Virus record (IMG/VR): IMGVR_UViG_3300002220_000624
Reading direction: 5' to 3' (one strand)
Length of the DNA: 64,000 nucleotides
Source: an uncultured virus (IMG/VR IMGVR_UViG_3300002220_000624)
Taxonomy: Duplodnaviria > Heunggongvirae > Uroviricota > Caudoviricetes
Below, one piece after another: positions 1-64,000 of this stretch. The notes under the pieces were generated by a model. That model was not told the DNA's origin and made no database searches. It worked only from the letters and a program-made list of their open reading frames with translations. The first letter of the stretch is position 1. Each line of letters begins with the position of its first letter. The translations under genes and the position numbers were made by a program.

Positions 1-462
1 GGCACGCTCGCCGTACCCGCTGCTGGCAGTGTGGCTCTCGGAGTCCCGGTAGACGCTGGAGTGGGCACGGCGGTCCTGACGCAGGCGGCGGTCGAAGCAG
101 GAACAGCCGCAGCTACACTCGCAATTAGAAACGACATCGCCAACATAGACTGGACAGCCCGCGCATTACTAACCGGCACCGTCGGAACCGTAACATCCAA
201 CAGCGACTTCACACTGTTAAGCGACGACCTTTCCGCAACAGACAACCAGTACAAAAATTGCTGGCTAGTCTTTGAGACCGGGAACAATGTTGGTGTTGCA
301 CGTTTCATTGGAGCTTATACTGGCTCCACGAAACGAGTACAGTTTAACGGCGGCGGCTTTGGTCGTGGCGAGTTTCCTAGTGATGTAGTCGCTGGCGATC
401 AGTGGCGTCTGTTACCGACGACCGACTTGGTTGCCGGTATTGTAGGAGTTCGCGCAACATGA
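1..462 (+). CDS. C-terminal part of putative virion/tail-associated protein (5' truncated by window edge)
   Basis: Frame is open from base 1 (GTLAVPAAGSVALGVPVDAGVGTAV...). G/A/T/V-rich. Lies next to fibre-like genes. Confidence 0.5.
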   Translation, partial: GTLAVPAAGSVALGVPVDAGVGTAVLTQAAVEAGTAAATLAIRNDIANIDWTARALLTGTVGTVTSNSDFTLLSDDLSATDNQYKNCWLVFETGNNVGVARFIGAYTGSTKRVQFNGGGFGRGEFPSDVVAGDQWRLLPTTDLVAGIVGVRAT

Positions 463-1272
463 GTTTACTAGCTCCAGTTCATGGCACTCCTTACGTCGGC
501 GGTCCTTTACCAGCGATCTGTGGCGTTTCCGAGTCTGGGCTGCAATCGAACTGGAAGGTCAATTATAACGCTGTAGCGGCTCCTGCTGTAACCGACGATT
601 CATCAAAGGGCTATTCTGTTGGATCGAGATGGTACTATGGCACCAATATTTATGAGTGCGTGAGTGCTGGAGTTGGTGCGGCTGTTTGGTCGCAAATTAA
701 CGCTGTTACATTGCCAGCCGGAACCGGGACTGAGTTGCAGTATCGCAACGGATCGGCATTCGGGGCTGTGGCTGGTTCGTCGTGGGACGGGACGAAGTTG
801 CAAATTACAGGAAACATAGAATCTACCAACATACACACGAGGACTCTTGGTTCTACGTTTCTGGGCAAGAATCAAACTGGTCAATCTCTGAATTATGTAA
901 CACTGATCGGGGATGGGTGTTATGCCGCAAACTCAGCCAGTGTTGGAGTGGGTTATGCAACATACGTTGCTGCTCAGTCCACTGCCATTGGGTCCCAGGC
1001 TAGGGCAGAAGGTTACGCATCCATTGCCATCGGCAGATCGGCCACAAGCAATGTCGCTTTAACCTGCGTTTTCGGTTGCGGTGATTACCCGATAAATGTA
1101 ATTCATGCGGGGAAGGGGATTACCCATGCAACACCGACCGCATGGACGCTGAAGGGCACTGGCGGCTCCGGCACCAACGTCGTCGGCGGGACGCTGTACA
1201 TCGCCCCAGGACCATCGACCGGCAACGCTACGCCGTCTGCGGTCGTGATCCAGTCCACCGTCCCCGGATCCA
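459..1272 (+). CDS. Tail fibre/adhesin-like protein, N-terminal part (YadA-head-like repeats); frameshifted at ~1272
   Basis: ATG at 459 overlaps the upstream stop. Contains STAIGSQARAEGYASIAIGRSATS repeats. The protein-like sequence switches frame at the 31-bp duplication at 1242-1303. Confidence 0.55.
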
Positions 1273-2433
1273 GTCGTGGTGCAATCCACCGTCGCCGGAA
1301 CCAGCGGGAGCACGTCGCAGACGTTGGTGAATCTGGTGACGTTCGAGAACGGGCAGGTGAATGTAGAAAACGCATATCCGCTTCGGTTTTTGGCGGCAGA
1401 CAGAACTTTGCGTGCGACAATAGCTGTAAGCATTGGAAACAACTATCAATCGTTTCAAGGTCGATACAGTCATGGGATTTATACTTTCGACACCGGTGCC
1501 AGGGTAATGCTCACCACAGGAACGGATTTGACGGCACCTGGAATGCCGTTCGCAATTCGTGGAAACATTTACGCCTCTAATTCCGAAGTCACTGACATGC
1601 TCGGAATCGGCGTTAACCCTAACATTGCCGTAGCGAATGGGCTTGGTACGTCTCTGCTGTTTCGTGCGAAATCTTCAACGACGAACGATCAAAGCCAGGG
1701 CAGGGTCGCTGCGTTTTGGAGCGATGCAACGCACGCAGCACGAACCGGGATCGTATCAATCGGTACGGTCTACAATGCCGGACCGATGACGGAACAATTT
1801 CAGGTCCGAGGGAATGGCGTCGTCAGGGCGCTGTTTGACGCGACGAACTACGCCGACTTCGCGGTCTCGTCCGCAGGCAACTTGACGGTTACGCCCAGCG
1901 GCGGCTTGGCTTCGCTCGTTGGCGACTTTGCCGTCGCATCGACAAACTATCACTACTGGGGAGCCTCCGACACAGACGGTTCATGGCGAATGGGACGCAG
2001 CGGCGATAACATCGTCATCGAGCGGAGAGAGGCAGGTTCATACGTCTCATCTGCCGCAGCCGCATTAGCTGTAGCCGCAGACATCAACATGGGCGAAAAC
2101 TCAGTCTATTTCGGCTCCACCGAAACCACTGCTACACCAACTGGAACCGAAGTCTCCTTAAATCTCGGCACAAAGAATCACCAGACGCTTGACACCAGCT
2201 CTGCCTCTGGCGATTTAACACTGTCAATCACGCCACCCAGCGGTCCCTGTGCAGGTACGATCATTGTTGTACAGGGAGCCACGGCACGCGATCTGACAAT
2301 TAGTTTGACAAGCGGAACATTGAAATGGCTTGGCTCTGTGCCTAGCTGGACATACGACACCAATAAGTACCGCATGATGGCGTGGCGGTGGAATGGAACA
2401 CATCTGTTACTTAGTGCTACGGAGGCAGCATAA
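1273..2433 (+). CDS. Tail fibre-like protein, C-terminal part (continuation of the 459 ORF after the frameshift)
   Basis: G/S/T-rich beta-strand-type sequence with a WRMG...IERR motif. Begins at the second copy of the duplicated VV(I/V)QSTV segment. Confidence 0.55.
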   Translation, partial: VVVQSTVAGTSGSTSQTLVNLVTFENGQVNVENAYPLRFLAADRTLRATIAVSIGNNYQSFQGRYSHGIYTFDTGARVMLTTGTDLTAPGMPFAIRGNIYASNSEVTDMLGIGVNPNIAVANGLGTSLLFRAKSSTTNDQSQGRVAAFWSDATHAARTGIVSIGTVYNAGPMTEQFQVRGNGVVRALFDATNYADFAVSSAGNLTVTPSGGLASLVGDFAVASTNYHYWGASDTDGSWRMGRSGDNIVIERREAGSYVSSAAAALAVAADINMGENSVYFGSTETTATPTGTEVSLNLGTKNHQTLDTSSASGDLTLSITPPSGPCAGTIIVVQGATARDLTISLTSGTLKWLGSVPSWTYDTNKYRMMAWRWNGTHLLLSATEAA

Positions 2434-2888
2434 TGAATGAACGCGAAGAAGCATTGAAGCCAGAATACGCTGCCATGACTCCGCAGCAAGTTGCCGATGC
2501 AGTCAATAGCCAGACTGTACCGGCAGAGCCAGTTTGTGTCTTTCTGTCGTTTCGCTCTCTTGGCGCATTACTTACATGTGCCGAGTATGATACACTTCGC
2601 TGGATTTTGGATTCGGCGTGTGAACAAGAAAAAGCAACTAATGGTCATCGCTTGCAAGATATTCGCGATATGCTAAAACAGCCTGGAGACCAAGCAGGTA
2701 ATGGTGGCGGAATTGATTTTAATTTGGCGGAAACGATGCTGAATTTGGAGCATCTTTGCTCGCAGAGTGAGTTGGTTTCTGCTGTTCCAGCAAAAATCGC
2801 AAGTTATGTTGCCTCGATGCAACCAGCGCCAACTAAGAAGTTTCGTGAAATTCACGCCGGTGATGTAGCCTACTGGAGAAACCAATGA
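2433..2888 (+). CDS. hypothetical phage protein
   Basis: 151-aa ORF translationally coupled to both neighbours. Confidence 0.6.
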   Translation: MNEREEALKPEYAAMTPQQVADAVNSQTVPAEPVCVFLSFRSLGALLTCAEYDTLRWILDSACEQEKATNGHRLQDIRDMLKQPGDQAGNGGGIDFNLAETMLNLEHLCSQSELVSAVPAKIASYVASMQPAPTKKFREIHAGDVAYWRNQ

Positions 2889-3340
2889 GCACCCTAAGAC
2901 CAAAATTCAGTACACCGGCACAACTAACAATTACACTGGCGGCTCTTGCCAGCAGCACAACCGGCGTCGGTAGGCAATGTACTCTAGTTAACAACTCAGT
3001 CACGCGGTATGACTTGATTAACCTGTATGGGAAAATCACGACAGGCACATCACCAACAACTGGCAAGGCAATTTACATTTACTTACTTCGTGGTGATGGA
3101 ACGCGGCGTACAGACAGCGCTGGAGCGAATGACGCAGCTATTGCTCGAATTACCGCAGTGCTGATTAAGCAAATCGGAATTGACGCCACAAGCGACAAGG
3201 CGTATGAATGGGACGCTGTAATTGCGGACCCAGGACCAGAGTGGGGCATTGCTATCGTACACGACACCGCAGTTAACCTAAATGCGACAGCAGAGAATCA
3301 TGCGATTTTCTGGGTTGGGTCGCACATGGAGCAAGTGTGA
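2885..3340 (+). CDS. hypothetical virion-associated protein (beta-rich)
   Basis: 151-aa ORF, ATGA overlap with the upstream gene, directly before the LamG-like gene. Confidence 0.6.
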   Translation: MSTLRPKFSTPAQLTITLAALASSTTGVGRQCTLVNNSVTRYDLINLYGKITTGTSPTTGKAIYIYLLRGDGTRRTDSAGANDAAIARITAVLIKQIGIDATSDKAYEWDAVIADPGPEWGIAIVHDTAVNLNATAENHAIFWVGSHMEQV

Positions 3341-4137
3341 GACGCAGAGCAGCTCCGACAGGGCTGATTCACGGTCCCTGGCGTAAAAATCCGAAAGCAC
3401 CAAGCAGCCTATGGGACGGTCTTGTCCTCGACGGTGCCTACGCCGGGCTGCATCCTGGGACTAACCGATTCGTGGATGGGAGCGGACTAGAGAATCACGG
3501 CACGCTGACGAACATGGACGCGGCGAGTGATTGGGTGTGGAGCGAAGAAATTTGCCGTGGAGGAATCCGTTTTGACTCTGGGTCGGAGAGAATTGAAGTC
3601 GCGAAATCCGACGCGTTGAAATCGAGCGGCGAGTTGAGCATTTCCGCGTGGTACACCGCAGACGTAAATTTGGCTGGACAGGTAATCGCGCTTTATGGAC
3701 GCGACATTCCGACGGCTGAATATGGCTGGTATGTAGGCGCAAGCGGAGTGTTTCGACTACTCGCCAGGATCAGCAGCGGCAGTGCTGCTGACACCATGCA
3801 GACGGCAGAAAACGCTTACGCTGACGATGGCACATACAGGCACGTAACCGCGGTGTGGCCTGGGGTCGGAGCCACAGCGGTCCTATACGCAAACGGTGTC
3901 CCATCTGTTACGACAACACAATCTGTCGTCCCACAGCAGTATGCAACCCTTGGCTTATGTATCGGGAACAGTGCAAACGTATCGCGAGACTGGAGAGGCA
4001 CTATATCTGACATGCTGATTCACTCGCGACCACTATTGCCTGCCGAAATCGAATGGCTAGCCGACCCAGCGCACCGCATGTACGAGCCCGACACGCGGCG
4101 GCAGTGNNGCAGTGTGCGTTTCCACGCAACCCAATAG
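3337..4137 (+). CDS. LamG/concanavalin A-like lectin domain protein
   Basis: Motifs DGSGLENHGTLTNM, LSISAW, YRHVTAVW, LYANG, WRGTISDMLIHSRPL..EI. The 3' end is uncertain (nn at 4107-4108). Confidence 0.75.
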   Translation: MRRRAAPTGLIHGPWRKNPKAPSSLWDGLVLDGAYAGLHPGTNRFVDGSGLENHGTLTNMDAASDWVWSEEICRGGIRFDSGSERIEVAKSDALKSSGELSISAWYTADVNLAGQVIALYGRDIPTAEYGWYVGASGVFRLLARISSGSAADTMQTAENAYADDGTYRHVTAVWPGVGATAVLYANGVPSVTTTQSVVPQQYATLGLCIGNSANVSRDWRGTISDMLIHSRPLLPAEIEWLADPAHRMYEPDTRRQXXSVRFHATQ

Positions 4138-4204
4138 CAATGCTCGCGGGTGCAAACTTTTAACACTATAAATCCAATAAAGAACTAGTTACGGAGAAAA
4201 CGAA

Positions 4205-4513
4205 ATGTCAGACGCACAAACAGCCCGAGTCACCGAGAAAGCCGCAGCCATCGAAGAACTTCGCCTGCAAGCAAAGCGATTCGTCGAAATGGTCGCCGCT
4301 TCACAGATCGCGATGAAACAACTGATGCTGTGGGGTGGTCCTACAGCGAGTGATATGGGTAATGTATCAGAAGAGATCGCCAACGAGCGACTAGCACAGA
4401 CGCTAGCATCTCTGGATGCCGCACAGGCACTCTTGGAGACACTTGGACAACCCTGTCCGAACTTCCCAGACACAACCATTGGCGATGCGTTGATGCGTAT
4501 CGCCAGCCGTTAG
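4205..4513 (+). CDS. hypothetical protein
   Basis: 102-aa ORF with GGAG RBS. Confidence 0.6.
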   Translation: MSDAQTARVTEKAAAIEELRLQAKRFVEMVAASQIAMKQLMLWGGPTASDMGNVSEEIANERLAQTLASLDAAQALLETLGQPCPNFPDTTIGDALMRIASR

Positions 4514-4525
4514 AAAGGCAACAAC

Positions 4526-4852
4526 ATGATTATTGATGATACCGTCGTACTTGACGACGACGACAAACCCGTAAAGGGCGGTGAAAACGAAGGCGACTGG
4601 ACCATGCGACATGCATGCTGGTTTGCATGTGCCAAGAGTCGTATTGGTGCCGACGGTAGACCAGCAACTACAGAAGAACTTACCATGCGGGGCAGAATCG
4701 CTCGCCGTATCAAAAAGCGGCAGGATATCGACGCTACCGAAGTGGCGAAAGTTCGCGAATGCTTGGGCTATCACGGATTCCCAGCAGACTTTGTCTACTC
4801 CGTGAGCGACTACCTCGACACGCTAGTAGTTGAAAGCAAAAAGAAGGACTAG
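4526..4852 (+). CDS. hypothetical protein
   Basis: 108-aa ORF with AAGG RBS. Confidence 0.6.
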   Translation: MIIDDTVVLDDDDKPVKGGENEGDWTMRHACWFACAKSRIGADGRPATTEELTMRGRIARRIKKRQDIDATEVAKVRECLGYHGFPADFVYSVSDYLDTLVVESKKKD

Positions 4853-4858: not shown

Positions 4859-6028
4859 ATGGCGACTACACCTATCGAGCTTCGCACGATTCCAGGCTTG
4901 ACGTTGACGGCAGATTTGTATGCTCTCGGCAACGATACTGTCGTCCAGGCAGGAATCACGCTAACAGAGCAGACAAATCGCAGCGGCTTCTACCGTGGAA
5001 ACATCACGGCTGCGGCGTCTGGCTGGCACACACTGTCAGTGAAGCTCGGTACGGCTGTAATCGACATTCTTGACATCGCCAATTTGCAAGATACAACCGA
5101 TCTCCAGTACGCGAGAACTGCTGGAGATCAGTCTGCTGTTCAATCCGCAGCCGCAGCGGCGATTGCGGCGGCTGAGCCGATTCGGGCAAACGCTGTCGAG
5201 ATTGGCGGTGTATCAGTCGAACCAGCCGATATAAGCCAGGATGTTCGTGACGCAATGGAACTGGAAAGTACAAGCGGGGAAGATTCGATTGACGACAAAC
5301 TGAATGCTCTAAGTTTTTCCGCAGGAGCGTCGGAGCTAAAAATTGATGCAATAAAAAGTGACACATCAAATATATCCAGTAAAACGGATAATGTTATTGA
5401 GAAGTTAACAGTGTTAACAGAGATTTCAGGGATTGGTCCTGTACCAGCTACTATTAGAGTGCTAGACCAGAACGGAAATCCTGTCCTTAATGCAATGGTT
5501 TTAGCTTATGATTCAGGAGTGCTCTCTGGAAAGGGCACAACAAATGAAAACGGAGAAGTAACACTCGGTCTTTCAAATGCAATATACGATATTATACTGT
5601 ACCACACTGGATACTCGTCGTCGCCAAAAAGACTAACCGTATCTGCTCCAGTTACTGTGTCATACTCAATAGAAATGATAACACTATCTGGTAGCAACGA
5701 CCAAGATTGGTGTTACATATATGCATATATATATAATGAAAATGGGCAGATCTCGCCAGAAACAGAAGCGTCAATAAGAATAATAAAAGAACCTACAGGA
5801 AGTGGCGGTATTTTTAGTGGTAAAATTAACACTGTAAAAAGTGATGACAATGGATTAGTTTCATGGTCCGGTGACATAAGATTCCCAGTTGGATGTCAAA
5901 TAGAATACTGGAGAGGGCCATCAGAGCCATCGTCTAAGAATGCGAAGAAAGTTACTGTCTCGTCTTCTTTAGTAAGTAACGGCGTTTTTTGGCTACCAAA
6001 GATAGTTGGTGGAGTAGAGGAAAGCTAA
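4859..6028 (+). CDS. putative structural protein with Ig-like/carboxypeptidase-regulatory-like domain
   Basis: IRVLDQNGNPVLNAMV...GTTNENGEVTL..Y.I...HTGY pattern. Confidence 0.55.
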   Translation: MATTPIELRTIPGLTLTADLYALGNDTVVQAGITLTEQTNRSGFYRGNITAAASGWHTLSVKLGTAVIDILDIANLQDTTDLQYARTAGDQSAVQSAAAAAIAAAEPIRANAVEIGGVSVEPADISQDVRDAMELESTSGEDSIDDKLNALSFSAGASELKIDAIKSDTSNISSKTDNVIEKLTVLTEISGIGPVPATIRVLDQNGNPVLNAMVLAYDSGVLSGKGTTNENGEVTLGLSNAIYDIILYHTGYSSSPKRLTVSAPVTVSYSIEMITLSGSNDQDWCYIYAYIYNENGQISPETEASIRIIKEPTGSGGIFSGKINTVKSDDNGLVSWSGDIRFPVGCQIEYWRGPSEPSSKNAKKVTVSSSLVSNGVFWLPKIVGGVEES

Positions 6029-6521: not shown

Positions 6522-7244
6522 ATGAGTAACCTAAGACTCGGTACTTACATTGACACTGATGTATATTATGCAGATCCACTTTCTGTTTATGCTCTCATAT
6601 TCAATTCAGATAACAATGCTATCAAGGAAAGTGTTGGTATATATTCTTTCGATGAATACTTATTAGTAAACCATAGTGATTACTGCATTGATCTACTAGA
6701 GCACTCAAATAGAACGAGATACTTTTTTGCAGATATAGACACATCATCTCTAGTGATGCCGTCAACAAGCAATGGAAGTCTTTACTGCATAGAATATTGG
6801 ATGAAGTCAAGTGAATCTGAATACAGCAGAGAAAATGATTTCTTCCTTTCGCATGAAATGTTTATGTGGGACAGCGTATACAAGAGAAGGTATTACGGCG
6901 AAATAAGCATCGAACAGGAAAAAAGACTTGTATATGCAAAGGCAAATGTATCTGCTGCTTACGACAGCATAGAAGGTAAGGTACGCATAATAGGCTGGCT
7001 TGAGATTGCTGGAAGAATTATTGAAACAACAAAAAGACTTGACGTGTATTGGAATAGCTTCGATGATACAGAGATAGCTTCTGCGCAGAAAACTGTGCAT
7101 CAATCAAATACTCCTGGAGTGTTTGCAATAGAAATATCTGGCATAGACCTAAACCCTGATTTAGTGACGCCAATAAAAGCTGTTATCGTTGATGAAGATG
7201 ATATTGAATATGGGTCTGTAGTGTCGGCAGCAACCTATGACTAA
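6522..7244 (+). CDS. hypothetical virion protein
   Basis: 240-aa acidic ORF, AGGA RBS. Confidence 0.55.
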   Translation: MSNLRLGTYIDTDVYYADPLSVYALIFNSDNNAIKESVGIYSFDEYLLVNHSDYCIDLLEHSNRTRYFFADIDTSSLVMPSTSNGSLYCIEYWMKSSESEYSRENDFFLSHEMFMWDSVYKRRYYGEISIEQEKRLVYAKANVSAAYDSIEGKVRIIGWLEIAGRIIETTKRLDVYWNSFDDTEIASAQKTVHQSNTPGVFAIEISGIDLNPDLVTPIKAVIVDEDDIEYGSVVSAATYD

Positions 7245-7581
7245 ATTAGTATGCACAGATAATAATCTATTTATAAAATCAACACACGGAAGCAGAAGGT
7301 TCTATAAGATTGATAAAGGTATTATTACGCATGGAACGCAATTGCTATTTGAGTCACAATTCAAAGGTGATATTTCTGTAAGCGTAGTTGAGCTTGAGAT
7401 TGATGAGTGCATTGCAAACATAGAGCCTGGTGAGTTAACACTGTTAAATAAGAATCATTTCTTGTTTATTGAGAATAAAGACAGTATATTCAGAATCGAA
7501 CAAGACGGTGACACTCCTGAGCTTGATTGTGGGATAGTTGAAATTAGTGCAACAGGCGTTGAAGTTATCATAGGTGCATAA
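7237..7581 (+). CDS. hypothetical protein
   Basis: 114-aa ORF overlapping both neighbours. Confidence 0.55.
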   Translation: MTKLVCTDNNLFIKSTHGSRRFYKIDKGIITHGTQLLFESQFKGDISVSVVELEIDECIANIEPGELTLLNKNHFLFIENKDSIFRIEQDGDTPELDCGIVEISATGVEVIIGA

Positions 7582-9997: not shown

Positions 9998-10732
9998 ATG
10001 ACAACAAAGCCTGTAAGAAAGGCCGTGGACAGAGAACGTCTAAAGCTGGATTATGCATCATATGATGGCTTGACGGATCATCAGAAGCGTGTTCAGATCA
10101 CAAAGCTGCTACAAAATAGCAGCTTTTGTGTTAATTTGACACCAGTTACAAAGAGCGACATAGAAGATACCATTGGATCGACAGTAACAGGCAAAGTTGG
10201 AGGCGGAGTTGCTATTGTTAGCGGTATTGCATATGCGAAAGCGTATTATGATGGAACAGATAAGACCGGAGAGATAAAAGCAGGACAGCCAGTTGTATTT
10301 GACACTGTTACTGGTGATTCTGTCACAGGAATAAATACATCATGGTCTCCGAGCGAATACAGAGTAGTTGGTATATCTCTTGTGAATTTCAATAAGCAAG
10401 CTCCGTATGCCGACTCAAATGAAAATCTGATACAGATAAAGCTAATAGAATTCGATCAGAGTGAGAGTGGCTTGATTGGATGCTGTTTAGTTGATGACCA
10501 TCCAGGTAGAGGCGTATTATTTGATGTCCATCTTGGGTACTGGGACTATATGAATTTGGTGTGGGTATACACAACAAGTATAGGGAAAGCGATAGATCAC
10601 AGATATGGCGTTCCGTATCCAGAGAAGGGTGCAACTGGATTGTTTGAGAAGCGTAAGTCTTATTCTCACGGTTTTATATGGGAGTGTGTATCACTCGATT
10701 GTGAAAGCCCAGGCGAATGCGTAATACAATAG
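9998..10732 (+). CDS. putative virion fibre/cement-like protein
   Basis: GEIKAGQPVVFD...VVGISL resembles small head-fibre/DUF2190-type motifs. Cys-rich C-terminus. Confidence 0.4.
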   Translation: MTTKPVRKAVDRERLKLDYASYDGLTDHQKRVQITKLLQNSSFCVNLTPVTKSDIEDTIGSTVTGKVGGGVAIVSGIAYAKAYYDGTDKTGEIKAGQPVVFDTVTGDSVTGINTSWSPSEYRVVGISLVNFNKQAPYADSNENLIQIKLIEFDQSESGLIGCCLVDDHPGRGVLFDVHLGYWDYMNLVWVYTTSIGKAIDHRYGVPYPEKGATGLFEKRKSYSHGFIWECVSLDCESPGECVIQ

Positions 10733-49624: not shown

Positions 49625-49640
49625 CTGGTTGTCGGGTGGA

Positions 49641-52350: not shown

Positions 52351-52355
52351 CAAAT

Positions 52356-52673: not shown

Positions 52674-52687
52674 CGGAGAACTAAACA

Positions 52688-53192: not shown

Positions 53193-53224
53193 AGGTTAAC
53201 TACCTAAAAGAACTGTCACATGAA

Positions 53225-53815: not shown

Positions 53816-53821
53816 TCAGCT

Positions 53822-55039: not shown

Positions 55040-55087
55040 CCGTCAAGTTAATATAAACACAACAAGCTAATCTGTGAGGTAATAACG

Positions 55088-57054: not shown

Positions 57055-57437
57055 TGCTAATCATGTACAGCGATCACGAAGCAATACGGCAGCACTTGCT
57101 TAATTCTCTTGGAGTAAGTGTTTCATCAAAGCCAGTTAATACTCATCCAGATTTAACAGTGTTACGAGAAACAGAGTGGAGTGAAAAATTTGAGCAGTTC
57201 ATGCGAAACAGATTGATAATGGGGTCATTTAGATATGGAACATTGGAAGAAAAGAAGAAAATTAGATACGATTATATTGGATATATATTTACAAAGCTTA
57301 AATCATACAAAGAAACTGGAAACTTAGAAGCATTAGTTGATGTTGCTAATTTATGTCTCCTTGAATTCATTAACCCAAGTCACGAAAATCCTGTATTTAA
57401 GCCAGAAGATAACTTAATAAGCTGCAAAATTCTTTAA
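57054..57437 (+). CDS. all-alpha phage protein, possibly MazG-like nucleotide pyrophosphatase fold
   Basis: RNRLIMGSFRYG...TGNLEALVDVANL. Confidence 0.4.
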   Translation: MLIMYSDHEAIRQHLLNSLGVSVSSKPVNTHPDLTVLRETEWSEKFEQFMRNRLIMGSFRYGTLEEKKKIRYDYIGYIFTKLKSYKETGNLEALVDVANLCLLEFINPSHENPVFKPEDNLISCKIL

Positions 57438-57454
57438 AAATTTTCGTACCCCCC

Positions 57455-57483
57455 TTGACAGGATGGGTCCGATATGGTATAAT
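57455..57483 (+). promoter_or_regulatory. consensus sigma70 promoter
   Basis: TTGACA-N17-TATAAT with a TG extension. Confidence 0.8.
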
Positions 57484-57537
57484 GATGGCATGCAAAGCGA
57501 AGGCAATTCTTAAGAGTATCAAACAATATAAAGGGGC

Positions 57538-57933
57538 ATGATAGTGATTATTACTCGAAGACAGTTCATTGCAAACGCTGTAAAAGTCACTGGTATCGCA
57601 GTTGGAGTTGCATCGACTTTTGCATGTGGAGAAGCTTCTGCATTCCTGTTTAATCGGAGGCGAAGAACCAATACCGTTAACACTGTTAATACGCAATACA
57701 CAAGCCCTCAACACGCTGCTGATTCCAAGGCTGACATTATGGCAGAGCGTGGAATATTTCGCCATCTTGGCGGTGGATATGGTGGCGGAAATGCAGAGGG
57801 AATCGGAAGGGCTTCAACAGCTAATGGTGCTCTAAACAACTGCTGCTTTACAGGACAAAGAACGGTCCTCGGTCAAGCTGTTAGATGGTCAGAGAAGTTA
57901 AGGTCTTATATTGCTGTGAAAATTTATAGGTAA
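57538..57933 (+). CDS. Tat-signal-bearing small exported protein (CAP/SCP-like)
   Basis: TRRQFI twin-arginine motif, ASA cleavage site, H.GG..AEGIG, NCC. Confidence 0.55.
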   Translation: MIVIITRRQFIANAVKVTGIAVGVASTFACGEASAFLFNRRRRTNTVNTVNTQYTSPQHAADSKADIMAERGIFRHLGGGYGGGNAEGIGRASTANGALNNCCFTGQRTVLGQAVRWSEKLRSYIAVKIYR

Positions 57934-57948
57934 ATAGAACACAAAGGA

Positions 57949-58881
57949 TTGCAAATGTCTGACAACGAAATTATCCATAGTGGCAACTTTTCGTTCGGTG
58001 ATTATCAGTCGCAGTTTGATGAAAACATTTCTGCTGGAGAAATAAGGGTTTCTCGCGTTGCTATCATGCAACCTGGTTCTCCAGAAATCACGAATACAGT
58101 ATCTGGCTATAAGCCTGGAATGCTTGTTGACACTGTTACGCGAGAAATCCTTACTCGCGAAATGAAGTCGCCGTGGCTGCAAGGGAAAGTTGACGTGTCT
58201 GAGCTTGCGAATCGCCACTGCCTACTCATTGTACCGGCATTCAAGTTGCCATCTGAGTTTATTAAGTGGAAAGACAGAAAGACCGAAGGCACTGGCTGGC
58301 ACTTCAAGACGCTGGACAGGAATGATCCTCGTGTTCGTGAAGGCTTGTGGCCTGGAAGCGGTGGAACGTGGGGTAAAAAGGAAGGTCAGGTTGGATCACC
58401 GCCTGTAACTGAGAACTGCAACTACATGTGCATGGTAGTTGAAAAAGAGACTAAAGAAGACGGAGAAGAAAAGCTTTCTGTTGTAGATAGTGGGATCATT
58501 TTTACATTCTCAAAGACTTCTTTTAACGCCGGAAGAAGTTTGACGACGTACATCAGAAAAGGTTTTCAACGACGAATTCCGGCGTTCGGAGTGTCGTATT
58601 GGATATATACGACAAAAGAGCTAAGCAAGAACGGTGAAGTGTATTACGCAATGAACTGCGCTCCTGGTTCGGTTGTGAAAGACAGAGACATTCTTGATAT
58701 GGCTTTTGATTGGCATAGGAAATTCTCGGAACCATCATCCGGTCAGGCATTGCAGGCTATGTACCTGAACTCTGCTGAGATTGGCGATGAAGGCAGCGAC
58801 GAAGTTAACAGTGTTAACAACAGCCATACGAGTGCTACTGAAGTTGATGAAGATGACGTTTCCGGTCAATCTCCGTTCTAA
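57949..58881 (+). CDS. putative ssDNA-binding/recombination protein
   Basis: Acidic C-terminal tail ending SPF; lies among DNA-metabolism genes. Confidence 0.45.
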   Translation: MQMSDNEIIHSGNFSFGDYQSQFDENISAGEIRVSRVAIMQPGSPEITNTVSGYKPGMLVDTVTREILTREMKSPWLQGKVDVSELANRHCLLIVPAFKLPSEFIKWKDRKTEGTGWHFKTLDRNDPRVREGLWPGSGGTWGKKEGQVGSPPVTENCNYMCMVVEKETKEDGEEKLSVVDSGIIFTFSKTSFNAGRSLTTYIRKGFQRRIPAFGVSYWIYTTKELSKNGEVYYAMNCAPGSVVKDRDILDMAFDWHRKFSEPSSGQALQAMYLNSAEIGDEGSDEVNSVNNSHTSATEVDEDDVSGQSPF

Positions 58882-59110
58882 GGAATACATTGATTCAAGC
58901 AAGAAGATACTACATTAGCATCAAAGATTGCGGAATAGTACTTGTCAGACCCGCTTGAGAATCTGAATGCAGACCAAGATATAGTAAGAATAAAAAAAGA
59001 GAATACGCAGGCAAGTGGATGCGTGGCAAAAAGAAAAACTCCAGATCTTTAATACCAGAAAACAAAATTACTAATAAACAAAACATGAGTTCATAAGGGC
59101 TTATTTTACT

Positions 59111-60562
59111 ATGACAACCGATACCGCTAATGCTTCTGCTGCTTCCAAAGTTTCTCTCGGCGACTCTGTTATCGGTCGCGCATTTGCTTCCGACGAAGAC
59201 GTTGGCAGTGCTGCTGCTATTCACGTTAAGCTGTCTTCTATTTACATCGACAAAGAGAGCAACTCGCGTGACGTTAACAGTGACAAATATGGTGCAGATT
59301 CGATCGCAAATCTTGCGGCTCAAATCAGGACGACCAATGGTTTGCTTCATCCGATCGTCATCGCTCCGCTCGATTCGTCGAACGAAGAAACTGAATTCAA
59401 AGATTTTATCCTTGTAGCTGGATATCGTCGCTCTCTTGCGCTTCAGAAATTGGCGCATGACGATGGGAATCCGGCTTGGGTCAATAGAATCCCTGCTCGC
59501 GTTACCGAAATCAGCGACCATGCTACATTTGCAATTGTACAAGCTATTGAGAACGTTGGTCGCGCTGATCTTAGCGCGCTTGAAATTTGTGATATGATCT
59601 CGAATATTCTCACAGAAAGCCGCGGCAAGCTTAGTCAGACTCAACTCGCGCAGTTGATCGGTTTGTCTCAAGGTGCTGTTAGTCGATATCTTTCGCTGAA
59701 AAAACTGCCCGATGAAATCAAGAAGATGCTGGCATCTGGAGCGATTGGATTTACAAACGCTGCAATGCTGTGCTCTGGTGAGTACAATATTGAAGATGCA
59801 AATCTCATTCGATTGGCGAAGATCGGAAGTAAGTTTACAACAGCAGCGTTTAAGGAACTGCTTGACAGCAGGTACAAGAAGCAATCTGGTGATGCAAAGC
59901 CAGACAAAAAGAATCCCGCTGGAAAGTATGTCAAGCCGACGGTTATTGAGAAGATTTATATTCCATTTTTGAAAGAAAAGATTGCGTCTCTTGCTGAGAA
60001 GGAACTTAAGCCTCAATACACAGAGGCTGATATCCTTGCAGCCAGATTCGACATGATCCAGGCTTTCCAGGGCGTGAAGTCTGCGTTTTCCGAAGAAGTT
60101 GAGCCATATCGCCAGAAAATCCAGGAAGTGATCGACGCTGAAAAGCGGACAGAAAAACAGAAGAAGGGATATGTGAAGTTTATCGCAACGCTTGTTAAGC
60201 GAGTCAGAGATCTGATGAAGCTACCTCCTGTAGAGGGTGCTCGTCCGTTTCCGACTATCGCGAGCGCTCTCGTGAAGATCGGTGGCGAGCTTGCTTCCAT
60301 GAAGCAGGCCGACATCGACAAGCTCGACATCAAGATCGACATCGCGAACAGCCTCAAGGATATCCTTGACACTGTTAAGGACGAATACCTGAAACAGGAT
60401 CGCGAACTCATTAAGAAGCGTGAAGCCGCTAAGGCGAAGAAGTTGCAAGAAGAGAAGGAAGCCAAGGCTTCTAAAAAGGAAGCCGGAGAAGATGCGACCG
60501 CAAAAACCAAGGCTGCCAAGGGCGAGAAGTCGTCTGACAAATCGGCCAAGAAAAAGGAGTAA
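59111..60562 (+). CDS. parB: ParB/Spo0J-family protein with Lys-rich tail
   Basis: NSR, LAAQI..GLLHPIVI, LVAGYRR, IENVGRADLS, HTH SQTQLAQLIGLSQGAVSRYL. Confidence 0.85.
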   Translation: MTTDTANASAASKVSLGDSVIGRAFASDEDVGSAAAIHVKLSSIYIDKESNSRDVNSDKYGADSIANLAAQIRTTNGLLHPIVIAPLDSSNEETEFKDFILVAGYRRSLALQKLAHDDGNPAWVNRIPARVTEISDHATFAIVQAIENVGRADLSALEICDMISNILTESRGKLSQTQLAQLIGLSQGAVSRYLSLKKLPDEIKKMLASGAIGFTNAAMLCSGEYNIEDANLIRLAKIGSKFTTAAFKELLDSRYKKQSGDAKPDKKNPAGKYVKPTVIEKIYIPFLKEKIASLAEKELKPQYTEADILAARFDMIQAFQGVKSAFSEEVEPYRQKIQEVIDAEKRTEKQKKGYVKFIATLVKRVRDLMKLPPVEGARPFPTIASALVKIGGELASMKQADIDKLDIKIDIANSLKDILDTVKDEYLKQDRELIKKREAAKAKKLQEEKEAKASKKEAGEDATAKTKAAKGEKSSDKSAKKKE

Positions 60563-60720: not shown

Positions 60721-61680
60721 ATGGAGGTACAGGAGATAGGACTTATGGCGATACGCTTTAGGAAAGACGCTGATAGCACAGAAGCCAACAACACAGTCAG
60801 TAAAACTGTTTATCAAAATCCTGTACACAGGAAGTATACTGACATTGATGAATGGAATGCATTCATTGCAGCAAAAAACCTTATCTCTTCATGTAGTTGT
60901 GGATGCTGCGGTGATTTAAAGCTGTGCAGGAACACAAGGGTCACTAGCTTATATTATTCATTACGCAATTATCTCATTGACAAAAACATGAAATTCTTTA
61001 AGAGGATTGCGTTATTAACGTCGAAGAGAATTGGAGCATTTAGGCGATCTGTTACTATTGAAGATTCTGTCAGTTCTGCCGTATTGGCCGGTATTCAGTC
61101 TGTAATGAGATACGATCCAGTTCATGGATCTAATGCATCATTCACTACATTCGCTTACCTTAGAATAAGGGGTGAGATTTTTGATGAATTGAGAAGAATG
61201 CAAGATTTCTCTAATTGCATTGCTGAGCTAAGGCGAGACATATACCCAAAGATTCAATGCATAACGCACATACTTGGAAGATTCCCTACAACAGAGGATC
61301 TAAGGGATGTATTGTCAGATGAAGACTTTGAAAAATGCATGAATCCTCTTGCGTTTTCATCAGTGAGAATAATATCTGATGTATTTGAAGATGGAACTGG
61401 AATCGACAGCTTGATAACATCGTCACAAGCAAGGCGCGATGCTGGAGTAAGGCGATCGGTTCAGGTTAACGCAATAGATCTTGATTCGATAATTGGAAGC
61501 GACCAATTAAAGAGCGTTATTTTTATGTACTACTACCTCGGTATGCCGCTTTCAGAGATAGCGCTTGTTGAGGGAATAAGTATTAGCGGTGCCTCTAAGA
61601 GAAAGCGTGATGCTGAGGATAAGATAAAAGAATATTTTGGTGACAGAGTTAACATGGTTAATTTCATGTATTCTAAGTAG
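60721..61680 (+). CDS. sigma70-family sigma factor, FliA/WhiG-like
   Basis: RYDP..ASFTTFAYLRIRGEIFDELR (region 2), LGRFPT.E, region-4 HTH LSEIALVEGISISGAS. Confidence 0.85.
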   Translation: MEVQEIGLMAIRFRKDADSTEANNTVSKTVYQNPVHRKYTDIDEWNAFIAAKNLISSCSCGCCGDLKLCRNTRVTSLYYSLRNYLIDKNMKFFKRIALLTSKRIGAFRRSVTIEDSVSSAVLAGIQSVMRYDPVHGSNASFTTFAYLRIRGEIFDELRRMQDFSNCIAELRRDIYPKIQCITHILGRFPTTEDLRDVLSDEDFEKCMNPLAFSSVRIISDVFEDGTGIDSLITSSQARRDAGVRRSVQVNAIDLDSIIGSDQLKSVIFMYYYLGMPLSEIALVEGISISGASKRKRDAEDKIKEYFGDRVNMVNFMYSK

Positions 61681-61864: not shown

Positions 61865-62759
61865 TGCAAGTGATGAGCAAAAAGTAGTACGCACAGTACA
61901 TGCAAAAGTTTTGAGGATAATATACAGCAGAGATGGTTATTTTATTTTCAGTTTCTCTATAAGTAAGCATGATGATGCATCGAAGATTGGTCAGATTTTT
62001 ACAGCAAAAGGAAATGTGCCATTTCAAATCTACCCAGGTTCAAGGGTTGTGCTAACTGGAACGCCAGTGTACGATAGCCAGAGAGATGCATGGCAGCTTA
62101 ACATAAAGAGTTCCACAGAGGACATATCTGATACTGACAAGGCAATCAGGGTACTGAAAGAGGCTAAGGGAGTTGGTGATGTAAAGGCAAAGGAGATAGT
62201 TGACAGCTTTTCAGTATCCGGTAATTCAGAAGGTATATTAGAAAGAATAGCAAAGAACCCAAGAATGCTATTGTCTGTACAGGGGATAAACAGTGAAACC
62301 TCTGTTGAAGTTTATAACCATGTTTGCAACTTCTTAAAGAGCGATAGCGGTCTACAAAAGCTTTATGAATTAAATTTAACAAATCACCAAATAGGTAGAA
62401 TACATGAATGCTTTAAGACATATTCATTAGATGTAATAAAAGCACGGTGTTTTGAGTTAACAAATCTTAACGGCATAGGCTTTTTGCTTGCGTCTAGAAT
62501 AGCAGATGCAGTTGGTGTTCCAAAAAGTGATCCGAAAAGAATTGAGGCTTGTATATTATATTATGCAAATGAAGCAATGAACAACGGAAGTGTTTGTTTT
62601 GATGGAATGGAGCTTATTAACACAGTTAATAAAATTCTTGGTGTTTCAACAAAAGCAATAGTTGATGTTTTTTCTAAGCTTGTTGAGGAAATGAAGATAG
62701 CAGCATTAAACGGAAGATTTGATCCAACTGAATACTCTAATATTATTCCAAAGGAGTAG
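61845..62759 (+). CDS. RecD2-like helicase, N-terminal half (OB and HhH domains)
   Basis: KGVGDVKA..IV, VQGI, LNGIGF..A.RIA..G...DPKRIEA. Confidence 0.8.
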   Translation: MSKRKSNASDEQKVVRTVHAKVLRIIYSRDGYFIFSFSISKHDDASKIGQIFTAKGNVPFQIYPGSRVVLTGTPVYDSQRDAWQLNIKSSTEDISDTDKAIRVLKEAKGVGDVKAKEIVDSFSVSGNSEGILERIAKNPRMLLSVQGINSETSVEVYNHVCNFLKSDSGLQKLYELNLTNHQIGRIHECFKTYSLDVIKARCFELTNLNGIGFLLASRIADAVGVPKSDPKRIEACILYYANEAMNNGSVCFDGMELINTVNKILGVSTKAIVDVFSKLVEEMKIAALNGRFDPTEYSNIIPKE

Positions 62760-62761
62760 CG

Positions 62762-63430
62762 ATGGCATACGAAAACGAGACTATTATGGTTATCAACAAA
62801 AGTGACGTAAATATTGACGATCTTGATATGTCGTTTAAGCCACGTAGCATGCACCGTATTGGCGAACCTTATAGAATCAGTGTTCTACAGCTTCTTGACT
62901 CATGTTATTATACACAGAGATGTGACGATCTTGAGAATAATCCTGAGATTTTGCAGATAATACCATACTGTGTTATTGTAGCTCCTTCTGGATATATATT
63001 TTCATATAGCAGAGGGAAGGAGACATCCGAAGGCAGGCTAAAGAAACTAAAGAGCATAGGTCTTGGTGGCCATGTGAAAGAACAGCCTGGAAGTGGAAAA
63101 GGCAGGTTGATGATACTAAGAGACTCAATAATTCGCGAACTAAAAGAAGAAGTAGGACAAGACTATGAGCATGTACGATGCTTTCTTCCTTATTTTAGCG
63201 GATACATTTTTGATCCAAGTAATCAAGTTGGTAGAGTGCATTTGGGTATTTTGTTTGTAATACCATCTTCAAGAATGTTTGTTGTTGCAAAAGATTCAGA
63301 GATTGGAGTCCACATGACTCCATATTCATGGATCAACATTGACCACCTTGGAACAAATGAAGACATGAATACGTATGAAACATGGAGCGACATCGTAATT
63401 AAGAATAAAGAACTATTATTAAGGTTTTGA
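62762..63430 (+). CDS. Nudix/MutT-family phosphoesterase (YmaB-like)
   Basis: LENNP..QIIPY, E.RL....SIGLGGH, RELKEEVG, VGRVHLG, YETWS. Confidence 0.8.
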   Translation: MAYENETIMVINKSDVNIDDLDMSFKPRSMHRIGEPYRISVLQLLDSCYYTQRCDDLENNPEILQIIPYCVIVAPSGYIFSYSRGKETSEGRLKKLKSIGLGGHVKEQPGSGKGRLMILRDSIIRELKEEVGQDYEHVRCFLPYFSGYIFDPSNQVGRVHLGILFVIPSSRMFVVAKDSEIGVHMTPYSWINIDHLGTNEDMNTYETWSDIVIKNKELLLRF

Positions 63431-63431
63431 T

Positions 63432-64000
63432 ATGTTATATTACCTTCCAGAGTTCAGGGTAAAGGAAGAGGAAATTGGGTTTATGCTTGCTAGGCAGGCA
63501 TTATATCCATGTGACAAGATAGCTGCTATTAAACCTGGCGATATCAATGGAATCGCGAATGAACAAAGCAAGCTTGATGACAGGCAGATGGCTGCTGTAG
63601 AGAATGCATGTACAAATAATTTATCTATTTTGTGTGGTAGAGCTGGGACAGGGAAGACTACAACTTTGAAAGCGATAGCAAATTCTTTTATTGGTGCTGG
63701 AATGAATGGCATTGCTATGTGTCCAACTGGCAAGGCTGCAAAGAGATTTCAGGAAGTTGTGTGTTGTGGAGATAAAATTAACAGTGTCAATCTTCCGTCA
63801 AAAACAATAGCATCTGCACTCAGATATTACAATGGAAGATTTACGGTCGATGAAAATGACACATTAGATTATGATTTTGTGATCGTAGATGAAGCTTCAA
63901 TGTGCGGAGTCCATACGTTTAATGCACTACTAAGGGCAATAGATTGGAAAAGAACTAGGATTGTAATTACAGGAGATCATAATCAACTGCCAAGCATAGA
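63432..64000 (+). CDS. RecD2-like helicase, ATPase half (runs off the window; not in ORF track)
   Basis: MLYYLPEF...Q..A...GRAGTGKTT, PTGKAAKR, IVDEASM, GDHNQLPS. Confidence 0.9.
   Translation, partial: MLYYLPEFRVKEEEIGFMLARQALYPCDKIAAIKPGDINGIANEQSKLDDRQMAAVENACTNNLSILCGRAGTGKTTTLKAIANSFIGAGMNGIAMCPTGKAAKRFQEVVCCGDKINSVNLPSKTIASALRYYNGRFTVDENDTLDYDFVIVDEASMCGVHTFNALLRAIDWKRTRIVITGDHNQLPSI

Follow-up and report, generated by a model that had tools for sequence, protein, structure and literature searches.

The closest precedents for the dispersed palindrome described here, both absent from the preliminary description, are the KorB protein with its OB operators on plasmid RK2, and the 17-bp palindrome of the Cluster O mycobacteriophages (PMC4351075). 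KorB is reported to slide to promoters as far as 1.5 kb away (PMC11790492). The Cluster O palindrome is the closest printed case and has no known function; the same phages carry a ParB-like gene, and the authors judged a role of its product in genome stability unlikely (PMC4351075). The sequence analysed here, referred to as the window, is a 64-kb stretch of a tailed-phage contig, across which a 13-bp palindrome recurs about once per kilobase. Most likely, a DNA-binding protein of the phage, for example a ParB-type clamp, docks at these palindromes.

Sequence and enrichment of the palindrome

The palindrome TTRACASTGTYAA has 29 exact copies in the window, the first at 2215 and the last at 63778, in agreement with the preliminary description, which had reported at least 29 at the same coordinates and a chance expectation far below one. 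In 100 dinucleotide-preserving shuffles the mean was 0.01 exact copies, and 29 was reached in none of them. A scan allowing up to one mismatch yields 55 copies (shuffled mean 0.41, maximum 3) and hence 26 one-mismatch copies; the earlier estimate of about 19 was too low, but all 16 positions listed for it are recovered. Two-mismatch copies number 17 against 6.5 expected, several of them falling in the largest gaps. The palindrome is the sole outlier word of the window, with its constituent 8-mers present 36-39 times against 3.9 expected.

The consensus dyad, TTRACA-S-TGTYAA, is 13 bp long, with a half-site spacer that is always 1 and never 0, 2 or 3, and pairing extends beyond the 13 bp by more than one position in only 2 of 33 copies. 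Conserved flanks are absent around the window's copies, and no fixed -10 box was found downstream of them. The palindrome is a rigid dyad, suited to a dimer-type reader.

Selection at the DNA level

Synonymous codons were shuffled over 200 rounds, keeping every protein and the codon usage of each gene. This leaves a mean of 6.7 of the 29 exact copies (maximum 9), which are essentially the unshuffled intergenic ones. The enrichment therefore survives both dinucleotide- and codon-preserving nulls, and depends neither on codon usage nor on the encoded proteins. Peptides able to encode the palindrome, which are those named earlier (LTVL, LTLL, NTVK, DTVK and NSVN), were counted 14 and 16 times where 0.87 and 0.61 would be expected, a 16-26-fold over-representation, and 23 of the 30 use the motif's exact codons. 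The peptide excess and this codon choice point to selection on the DNA and not the protein, as had been proposed, and mean that the phage's own protein sequences have been bent to accommodate the palindrome. Within genes the copies occupy the two frames that contain no stop codon, on both coding strands, and they are also used in intergenic DNA. Both shuffles, together with the occurrence of copies in two frames, on both strands and in intergenic DNA and the lack of conserved flanks, reject an artefactual origin in composition, codon usage, a recurring protein motif or a dispersed mobile repeat; nothing was found in support of such an origin, and its probability is negligible.

Spacing and placement

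The 55 copies have a mean spacing of 1.18 kb, close to the 1.3 kb first estimated, and a density of 0.86 per kb. Random placement gives a coefficient of variation (CV) of the gaps of about 0.98; the observed values are 0.54, 0.61 and 0.62 when up to 0, 1 and 2 mismatches are allowed. Only 2 gaps are shorter than 400 bp, against 15.8 expected, and the largest is 3190 bp, so that every base lies within 1595 bp of a site. The copies are thus evenly spaced with short-range exclusion, a tiling compatible with a genome-coating or coverage role. An even pitch would likewise be useful if a translocating enzyme had to encounter a mark at least once in a given distance, and the copies could be covalent or enzymatic targets: sites of methylation, hypermodification or programmed nicking, or a self-mark halting a nuclease-helicase such as the window's large SNF2 helicase (1269 aa), which has a short PLD-like anti-phage match and is encoded alongside RecD2-like helicase pieces and exonuclease-like proteins. 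This is very improbable: neither a DNA methyltransferase nor a nickase was recognised among the window's genes, its sole methyltransferase is of the O-methyltransferase type and lies among glycosylation genes, and modification targets normally need neither enrichment nor even spacing. Phage nick sites known so far are, moreover, asymmetric.

On ORF-based gene calls, 39 of the 55 copies lie wholly within genes, bearing out the earlier statement that most are in coding sequences, on both strands and in different frames. In the left part of the window, exact copies lie in a coding sequence at 2215-2227 and in CDSs 4859-6028 (5405-5417), 7237-7581 (7435-7447), 10743-13181 (10894-10906), 13106-14533 (13365-13377), 14547-16862 (15070-15082, 15475-15487 and 16201-16213) and 20064-20762 (20701-20713), and one-mismatch copies in coding sequence at 5826-5838 and 10299-10311, in CDSs 7581-9977 (8532-8544) and 18311-19054 (18484-18496), and, with a central T, 25 bp into CDS 19074-19568 (19093-19105). 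Further along, exact copies occur in the minus-strand CDSs 26292-26987 (26642-26654), 35266-35634 (35487-35499) and 40646-41137 (40822-40834), 24 bp into the start of 41544-42674(-) (42644-42656), at the start of ORF 43794-43973(-) (43958-43970) and in ORF 48408-48626(-) (48562-48574); one-mismatch copies lie in coding sequence at 27821-27833 and 40096-40108, and the SNF2 gene holds one such copy (30977-30989) and two exact ones (31579-31591 and 32143-32155). On the right, exact copies lie in CDSs 53822-55039 (54279-54291), 55500-56840 (56127-56139), 57538-57933 (57677-57689) and 57949-58881 (58805-58817) and in the open-ended RecD-like ORF 63432-63998 (63778-63790), with one-mismatch copies in coding sequence at 52954-52966, 55624-55636, 57153-57165, 58127-58139 and 62617-62629.

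Of the 55 copies, 17 are not fully in coding sequence, although non-coding DNA makes up only 8.2% of the window (p about 1e-6), and 16 of 55 fall in the interval from -70 to +50 around a start codon, where 9.2 would be expected; the copies are preferentially placed in the scarce non-coding DNA. Two span gene junctions, a one-mismatch copy between 20765-21652 and 21655-22119 (21649-21661) and an exact copy at 37397-37409. Intergenic one-mismatch copies include TTCACACTGTTAA at the window's edge (208-220), a centre-A copy 29 bp before the start at 19631 (19596-19608), copies 21 bp before the start at 20064 (20037-20049), 50 bp before that at 22570 (22514-22526) and 37 bp before a start codon (38849-38861), and those at 41490-41502 and 45654-45666. 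Intergenic exact copies lie 31 bp upstream of the start of 23500-24846(-) (24871-24883), between 33457-35247(-) and 32990-33349(-) (33385-33397), at 47148-47160, and 56 bp upstream of the start of 48754-49434(-) (49484-49496).

A divergent, largely non-coding control region of about 1.5 kb (50850-52355) contains a split inverted repeat, an AT-rich block, 9-bp iterons and overlapping centre-T copies of the palindrome (51687-51699 and 51696-51708, within TAACATTGT x3.5 at 51679-51709). Palindrome density reaches 2.3 sites per kb over 50201-52355, with one-mismatch copies assigned to the control region at 50695-50707 and, intergenically, at 50899-50911. An exact copy (52311-52323) lies 33 bp upstream of a winged-helix gene, the first of the rightward arm, which adjoins this region.

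Candidate readers and proposed mechanism

The leading candidate reader is a 483-aa ParB-CTPase protein encoded at 59111-60562(+). It matches PF17762 (HTH_ParB), with a precomputed match to PF02195, scores 63.8 bits against TIGR00180 (cut-off 58.45), and aligns to the CTP-bound Caulobacter ParB 6t1f and to Noc. It carries IGRAF at its N terminus and the boxes VAGYRRSLA (GxxRxxA) and IENVGRADL (ENxxRxDL), and on these sequence features is a genuine ParB of canonical architecture. Its gene contains two palindrome copies, one with a mismatch (59274-59286) and one exact (60366-60378) encoding L-D-T-V-K. Where the exact copy lies, relatives of 67% and 47% identity retain L-N-T-V-K and L-N-S-V-H, a conservation that protein constraint could explain equally well. 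Neither a ParA nor a KorA-like partner was recognised among the genes of the 64-kb window (23.5 kb of the 87.6-kb contig lies outside it).

The ParB-type protein has at least two competitors for the role of reader, which counts against it. The 596-aa protein at 33457-35247(-), previously described as a second ParB-like protein, proved only marginal (TIGR00180 21.3 bits, under the cut-off of 58.45; KorB domain E 7.7e-4, under cut-off; ParB chains E 0.018), and its predicted fold model is unusable. The helix-turn-helix protein noted earlier at 52356 is a 105-aa protein of the MerR/Xis winged-helix type (52356-52673, +) with a long C-terminal helix (HTH_17 E 0.0066; model pLDDT 70.9); the nearest folds to the model are SoxR, RacA, MtaN, BldC and Xis, none at E<=0.001. 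Most small ORFs of the window have no recognisable fold.

A phage dimer acting at dispersed operators might be a non-ParB protein: the MerR/RacA/Xis-like winged helix, whose modelled long helix could dimerise, the KorB-like protein with its weak domain match, or an unrecognised small protein. Such an immunity-type repressor would bind every copy and keep the prophage silent, preventing initiation where copies lie near start codons and forming an orientation-independent, stoperator-like roadblock within genes. The element encodes a tyrosine integrase and is therefore probably temperate, non-coding and start-proximal DNA is enriched for copies, and the exact copy before the winged-helix gene sits beside the motif-dense control region. 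Unrelated viral contigs (L005 and L008), furthermore, have this palindrome in a local array next to a LexA-type winged-helix gene, but the L005 winged-helix protein has no homologue in the window. Most copies lie in genes, the matches of the window's own winged helix are weak, and a palindrome cannot provide the orientation dependence described for stoperators (PMC4351075; PMC9283540). Repression by a non-ParB reader is considered unlikely, if a serious alternative.

The preferred reading, with a probability of roughly 0.4, is that the 13-bp dyad is a docking site kept by selection at a pitch of about 1 kb and read by a phage dimer, likeliest the ParB-type CTPase, with silencing or organisation as the outcome. 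A symmetric phage-encoded dimer would read the palindrome; the partner-less ParB-type protein may be loaded onto the DNA as a clamp at each copy and then move by sliding or spreading over roughly 1 kb, such that 55-72 loading sites would jointly leave no base of the genome uncovered. If KorB on RK2 is a guide, the prophage or replicating genome would probably be transcriptionally silenced or organised along its whole length, with the dense cluster at 50.85-52.35 kb as a putative master control or origin region; protection is a further possible function.

Occurrence in other genomes

No genome-wide equivalent was found in the viral, metagenome and 185,579 prokaryote genome collections scanned, and the dispersed palindrome is element-specific in having no counterpart there. 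A spaced-pair scan, which does detect the window (1 match per 64 kb), returned only 3 loci in the 185,579 species genomes, none at window-like density. Of 401 cyanobacterial genomes, none had more than 50 copies (in 5.2 Mb, where the window's density would give about 2,300). These indirect scans argue against equal abundance in the host chromosome. A host-directed or host-inherited word (a nucleoid-protein site, a host-wide iterated palindrome, a REP-type repeat, or an uptake or Chi-like mimic) is improbable. Such an origin is suggested by Cyanothece and Crocosphaera chromosomes, in which the same 13-mer (19 and 26 copies; the reversed control has 1 and 6) is the core element of a longer, REP-like hairpin repeat that flanks a RAYT-like gene; the window's copies, by contrast, have no REP flanks, the window has no RAYT-like gene, and its source, hydrocarbon and wastewater metagenomes, is not obviously cyanobacterial. 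The known Chi and uptake signals, moreover, are shorter than this word and lack its symmetry.

Comparison with known systems

The palindrome is evenly pitched (CV 0.61), whereas the Cluster O palindrome is not (computed gap CV 1.07). Three comparisons speak against the ParB-type reading: the 483-aa protein is nearer to ParB and Noc than to KorB, parS is 16 bp long and the phage palindrome 13 bp, and no ParB, KorB or Noc system is known to approach the window's site density.

Abundance of the palindrome and selection on the DNA

The palindrome of the window (TTRACA-S-TGTYAA) is a DNA-level, selection-maintained and evenly tiled dyad. The degenerate 13-mer TTRACASTGTYAA occurs in 29 exact copies in the 64-kb window, as against a mean of 0.01 in 100 dinucleotide-preserving shuffles, and 55 copies are present if one mismatch is allowed, whereas the shuffles gave 0.41 on average and never more than 3. 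The preliminary description had reported at least 29 exact copies, which agrees with the count, and about 19 one-mismatch copies, which was too few, the actual number being 26, although all 16 of the positions it gave for these are present. A further 17 copies have two mismatches, compared with 6.5 ± 2.2 expected under a first-order Markov model, and several of these (at 4160, 23255, 24317, 28848, 34334 and 36498) sit in the largest gaps. In an unbiased k-mer scan, sub-words of the palindrome were the only strong outliers in the window, with 8-mers found 36-39 times compared with about 3.9 expected, and the cyanobacterial HIP1 word occurs once.

The contribution of coding sequence was assessed with a synonymous-codon shuffle, carried out for each ORF-called gene with proteins and per-gene codon usage kept (91.5% of the window is coding). 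Over 200 rounds this left a mean of 6.7 of the 29 exact copies (maximum 9), approximately the intergenic ones, which lie outside the reach of the shuffle. The enrichment thus stands under both the dinucleotide-preserving and the codon-preserving null for which the preliminary description had called, and an artefact is extremely improbable. The in-gene copies are found in genes of both strands and are restricted to the two frames free of a TAA or TGA stop; the palindrome can be encoded only as L-T-[LV]-[LS] with A as the first base of the next codon, or as [FLIV]-[ND]-[TS]-V-[KN]. The 19,960-aa proteome contains 14 and 16 peptides that fit these two patterns, as against 0.87 and 0.61 in 500 residue shuffles (maxima 4 and 5), and 23 of the 30 use the exact codons of the motif, several of which make up only 14-27% of their synonymous set. 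Selection is on the DNA, and the proteins of the window have been bent to accommodate the palindrome. Comparison with matching DNA from another sequencing run (X2) gave 229 differences over 40001-60000, and no palindrome copy is hit among the 40 substitutions and 12 indels listed, where less than one hit would be expected.

Anatomy of the site

The site is a rigid 6+1+6 dyad, with zero copies having a spacer of 0, 2 or 3. At the centre, 19 copies have C, 10 have G, 3 have T and 1 has A; the bias of C over G is not significant (p 0.136) and has no association with gene strand. The flanks are without base preference, and pairing beyond the 13 bp is absent in 17 of 33 copies, involves one position in 14, and two or three positions in the other 2. 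In 16 of the 33, the base at -1 can pair with that at +13, compared with 26% expected (p 0.005), again without base preference, and the site in function may extend weakly to 15 bp.

Two other readings of the word were rejected. For a promoter element, the palindrome is not followed by a -10 box at any set distance, and 40-58 kb contains 34 sigma-70-like matches, compared with 35.4 in shuffles. For a hairpin or terminator, a 6-bp AT-rich stem closed by a 1-nt loop would not be credible as a hairpin. The reading of the palindrome as an enzymatic mark is very improbable.

Spacing, placement and the divergent control region

The 55 copies with up to one mismatch are separated by a mean gap of 1177 bp with a coefficient of variation (CV) of 0.61, compared with 0.98 for random placement; a CV this low was reached in none of 5000 random placements, and in 0.03% of 3000 in a separate run. 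Only two gaps are shorter than 400 bp (9 and 204 bp) where 15.8 would be expected, and the largest is 3190 bp, as against a random mean of 5245, every base lying within 1595 bp of a copy. Restricting the set to exact copies (CV 0.54), or widening it to the 72 that have up to two mismatches (CV 0.62), gives the same evenness.

Copies wholly within coding sequences number 39 of 55, and 17 of 55 were counted as not fully in a coding sequence although 8.2% of the DNA is non-coding (p ~1e-6), so that non-coding stretches are favoured. Relative to a start codon, 16 of the 55 lie between -70 and +50, compared with 9.2 ± 2.7 expected. Density is 0.7-1.0 per kb across the three gene arms, peaks at 2.3 per kb in a divergent control region (50.2-52.4 kb), and is 0.42 per kb at the left end (1-4800). 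The left end has a GC content of 0.53, compared with about 0.40 elsewhere, contains 2 palindrome copies only and encodes tail-fibre-type domains; it may be a recently acquired host-range module in which the word has not yet accumulated. Two Ns are present in it, at 4107-4108.

The divergent region is largely non-coding over about 1.5 kb (50850-52355) and contains several types of repeat. At 51679-51709 the unit TAACATTGT is repeated 3.5 times in tandem, with three overlapping units forming two centre-T copies of the palindrome. A split form of the motif, consisting of an inverted repeat with 13-nt arms, a 10-nt spacer and motif half-sites, is located at 51615-51650. A very AT-rich block extends over about 51700-51860, and the 9-bp iteron CATAAATTT is present four times at 52085-52118 and again at 52038. 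The region has the appearance of an origin or of a master control element, and the ORF called across it (51657-52061) is probably spurious.

Gene content of the phage

The window is read as a temperate tailed phage, few of whose proteins match known families. The left arm encodes the tail-fibre-type domains (YadA head, Laminin_G_3, CarboxypepD_reg/Big_1), and within the structural arm lies a glycosylation block (13106-19054, +) containing glycosyltransferase-like, DUF5672, Methyltransf_24 and NAD-dependent epimerase genes. A 798-aa protein has Uroviricota proteins and tail/baseplate families as its nearest atlas clusters (score 0.93), which is a lead only. Beyond the left arm are a tyrosine integrase and Pam3 gp34-like, exonuclease-like and RecD2-like proteins. 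A 1269-aa SNF2 helicase (28956-32765, -) contains a short match to a PLD-like anti-phage protein (residues 518-573) and has weak similarity to the ZorD, DrmD and DpdE helicases. It may be a phage-carried defence or counter-defence enzyme, and three palindrome copies lie in its gene.

A FliA/WhiG-like sigma factor (60721-61680, +; TIGR02937, above cut-off) is encoded directly downstream of the ParB gene, and its family assignment suggests that the phage probably redirects the host RNA polymerase. At 57455-57483 (+), between the genes at 57054-57437 and 57538-57933, lies a promoter that fits the sigma-70 consensus perfectly (TTGACA, 17 nt, TATAAT, with TG), the only 12/12 match in 40-58 kb. The single tRNA gene, tRNA-Ile with anticodon TAT (43491-43564, -), may be an attachment site or recombination hotspot. 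Contigs of other runs end or diverge near it, with loose ends at 43499-43565. The fraction of window words recovered was 0.99 in a hydrocarbon-metagenome run, which may be the origin of the sequence, and 0.44 in a wastewater-metagenome run, and window DNA was partly present in runs of two further studies, with no RNA run among the matches listed; pieces from two of the matching runs (X3 and X4) are at least 99% identical to the window.

Candidate readers of the palindrome

Three proteins of the window were considered as candidates for the protein that binds the palindrome (the reader), of which the 483-aa ParB (59111-60562, +) is the leading candidate. It contains an HTH_ParB domain (PF17762, E 5.1e-8, 33.4 bits as against a cut-off of 22.6), passes TIGR00180 (63.8 bits, cut-off 58.45) and carries PF02195 as a precomputed annotation. 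It aligns with the CTP-bound Caulobacter ParB (6t1f) and with Noc, its GxxRxxA box being VAGYRRSLA and its ENxxRxDL box IENVGRADL. The N-terminal IGRAF is near [LFI]G[KR]G[LFI], the motif for ParA binding set out in PMC12704722, and near the IGRTL of P1. By its sequence, this protein is classified as a genuine ParB of canonical layout. No Walker-A ParA-type ATPase is found among the window ORFs of at least 50 aa, 23.5 kb of the 87,563-bp contig lying outside the window. The ParB gene itself contains one exact palindrome copy and one with one mismatch. At the position of the exact copy, the window protein reads L-D-T-V-K, a 67% relative (P0002) L-N-T-V-K and a 47% relative (P0003) L-N-S-V-H; these substitutions fit the degeneracy of the motif but also ordinary conservative changes, and thus give weak evidence for the word in the relatives.

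It is possible, if rather doubtful, that a different phage-encoded reader acts by the same logic. The 596-aa protein (33457-35247, -), which the preliminary description had grouped with the ParB, appears only marginally ParB-like: its KorB domain match (E 7.7e-4) is below cut-off, ParB chains are matched at E 0.018, and TIGR00180 gives 21.3 bits. A single-sequence fold of its N-terminal 330 aa was unusable (mean pLDDT 38.5). The 105-aa protein (52356-52673, +) has a weak HTH_17 match, and an exact palindrome copy lies 33 bp upstream of its start. It is modelled as a winged helix with a long C-terminal helix (pLDDT 70.9), and its nearest solved folds are SoxR, RacA, MtaN, BldC and Xis, none at E<=0.001; it is a plausible reader, though weakly evidenced.

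Occurrence of the palindrome elsewhere

No near-identical DNA was found in phage or plasmid collections. Searches for related loci gave no matches, either with the single ParB protein and SNF2 in viral contigs or with a ParB alignment in metagenome and viral contigs; these collections contain neither the contig of the window nor those that encode P0002 and P0003. In tblastn searches against annotated phages, the best ParB match was 31.5% identical over 33% of the length, in a Dolichospermum phage; SNF2 gave about 29% over 15%, and a 222-aa protein about 30-36% to Nudix-like genes.

Motif scans of viral contigs, metagenomes and species genomes gave no genome-wide equivalent of the tiling. A close-pair scan of the viral contigs returned 19 stretches, all of them either tandem repeats or local groups of 2-4 copies, and none homologous to the window. 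For example, two viral contigs of GC 0.52-0.55 contain tight arrays of 3-4 exact copies plus one-mismatch copies (L005 4661-4782; L008 185-288), which adjoin a gene for a 79-aa LexA-type winged-helix protein and a large-terminase gene, and which could be an operator array or packaging site. These arrays indicate that unrelated phages use the palindrome as a protein site of the ordinary, local kind. A spaced-pair pattern, which matches the window itself once per 64 kb, had zero matches in viral contigs. In metagenomes it matched 11 loci, mostly tandem repeats of 21-bp period or dense local arrays, without homology to the window. A 2.2-kb metagenome contig unrelated to the window (L035, GC 0.33) carries a very dense array of 15 copies with up to one mismatch at irregular spacing.

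These scans also bear on the possibility that the palindrome is a signal directed at the host, which is distinctly unlikely. Among 401 cyanobacterial genomes the maximum was 50 copies per 5.2 Mb, as against about 2,300 at the density of the window, and across 185,579 species genomes spaced pairs were present at only 3 loci, two of which are Cyanothece and Crocosphaera. A chromosome tiled at the density of the window would yield dozens of spaced pairs, so that a host-wide origin is unlikely, although the host may lie outside the genomes sampled.

Proposed mechanism and significance

From these properties, we infer that the reader of the palindrome is a symmetric dimer encoded by the phage. With a probability of roughly 0.4, and by analogy with KorB, the ParB-family CTPase of the window reads the palindrome, the copies being loading sites for a clamp that silences or organises the genome. 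In this mechanism, each copy would be recognised by the phage-encoded symmetric dimer, a ParB clamp loaded there would slide or spread along the DNA, and the loaded clamps would silence or organise the phage genome as KorB does. Even tiling with short-range exclusion is the outcome expected if selection favours covering the whole genome as cheaply as possible. A more ambitious version, which we regard as speculative and rather unlikely, is that the whole phage chromosome is tiled with loading sites at a pitch matched to how far a CTP clamp of the ParB family slides, with every base under a phage-made coat. This would constitute a sequence-programmed minimal ‘viral chromatin’ that silences the prophage, or marks or shields the DNA from nucleases, and its cost would be the rewriting of dozens of phage protein segments to hold the sites evenly spaced. 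The observation made in the preliminary description is confirmed and made stronger by the present analysis, and its interpretation, of a dimeric phage protein coating the genome for segregation, compaction, protection or silencing, is supported in part.

Prophages often carry orphan ParBs, most of them uncharacterised (PMC12704722). Should the ParB of the window prove to be the reader, long-range control of the KorB type would be shared by plasmids and phages, it would be clearer what many orphan phage ParBs are for, and the even spacing would be a genomic read-out of the working range of the clamp. Published accounts of dispersed phage palindromes go back to the Cluster O mycobacteriophages (2015). 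The window is an extreme and clean example, with about one site per kb, near-regular spacing, a measurable imprint on its proteins and a short list of candidate readers. Three proteins and one 13-bp site, with and without CTP, make the question testable in vitro without the host. No published description of an evenly spaced, mostly intragenic phage palindrome array, or of its link to a ParB, was found in the literature searched outside subscription journals.

Comparison with known systems

The IncP-1 plasmid RK2 carries about a dozen OB sites, OB being a 13-bp 6+1+6 dyad with a central S, as in the window palindrome. In both cases a mobile element contains many dispersed copies of one short palindrome, with a ParB-family reader, which in the window is a candidate. 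KorB of RK2 is a ParB-family CTPase clamp that slides up to about 1.5 kb to silence genes (PMC11790492), and the greatest distance to a site in the window, 1.6 kb, matches this range. By contrast, the window has 55-72 sites and these are mostly in genes, whereas the OB sites are mostly near promoters and outside genes. KorB also has the partners IncC/ParA and KorA, none of which was recognised in the window, and the 483-aa protein is nearer to ParB and Noc than to KorB.

The Cluster O mycobacteriophages (~70 kb) have over 30 copies of the 17-bp palindrome TGTTCGGNNNCCGAACA throughout the genome, about one third in genes and two thirds intergenic, mostly not at promoters and denser at the right end (PMC4351075). 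The authors predicted a dimeric binder and assigned the palindrome no function; they describe an orphan ParB-like gene, methyltransferase and glycosyltransferase genes in the structural arm, and no integrase (PMC4351075). Ryadel is the subject of a further Cluster O paper (PMC6439249). The window resembles these phages in having more than 30 dyad copies (55 in 64 kb) spread over a tailed-phage genome and partly in genes, in its ParB gene, and in its glycosylation block within the structural arm, but without sequence homology and with a different word. Corndog (69.8 kb), measured in the same way, has 34 exact copies with a CV of 1.07; 7 of the gaps are shorter than 400 bp and the longest is 9.2 kb, and thus, unlike in the window, the copies are not evenly spaced. 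No window ORF matches a Corndog protein at 1e-4, and gp90 matches the window ParB at E 1.4.

The stoperators of Cluster A phages are dozens of repressor sites distributed over a temperate phage genome, with silencing across the genome and beyond promoters (PMC9283540). They are asymmetric and oriented with transcription (PMC4351075, PMC9283540), are read by a monomeric repressor and lie mostly in short intergenic gaps, whereas the window site is a perfect dyad without orientation, and 39 of its 55 copies are wholly in coding sequences.

Dispersed palindromes are also found in the ParB-parS, Noc-NBS, MatP-matS and RacA-ram systems, in which dimeric readers organise the chromosome; the window ParB aligns best to ParB and Noc, and the fold neighbours of the 105-aa protein include RacA. 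In these systems, however, a site recurs only every tens to hundreds of kb, which is about 100-fold more sparsely than in the window. The resemblance to matS remarked on at first holds for the minor variant TTGACASTGTCAA, which fits the inner 11 positions of the quoted consensus, but not for the major TTAACA form, which differs at four positions, including position 3/11; the outermost positions differ in all copies. Domain searches found no MatP-type domain in the window.

In Cyanothece sp. BG0011 and a Crocosphaera MAG (loci L021, L022, L025, L027 and L028), a longer REP-like hairpin whose flanks are conserved is built around the identical 13-mer, with 19 and 26 repeat copies per genome, respectively. 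In L022 (3024-4497), about six of these copies, some 205 bp apart, flank a gene for a 198-aa RAYT-like protein (NF047646, E 1.8e-17, below cut-off). REPs are longer flanked hairpins, extragenic and tied to RAYT, whereas the window copies are without such flanks and mostly in genes; no RAYT was found in the window, where tblastn with the L022 protein gave a best E of 1.6. The palindrome array of the window belongs with the dispersed palindromic protein sites on mobile elements, and is set apart by how densely and regularly the sites recur and by the mark that they have left on the proteome.
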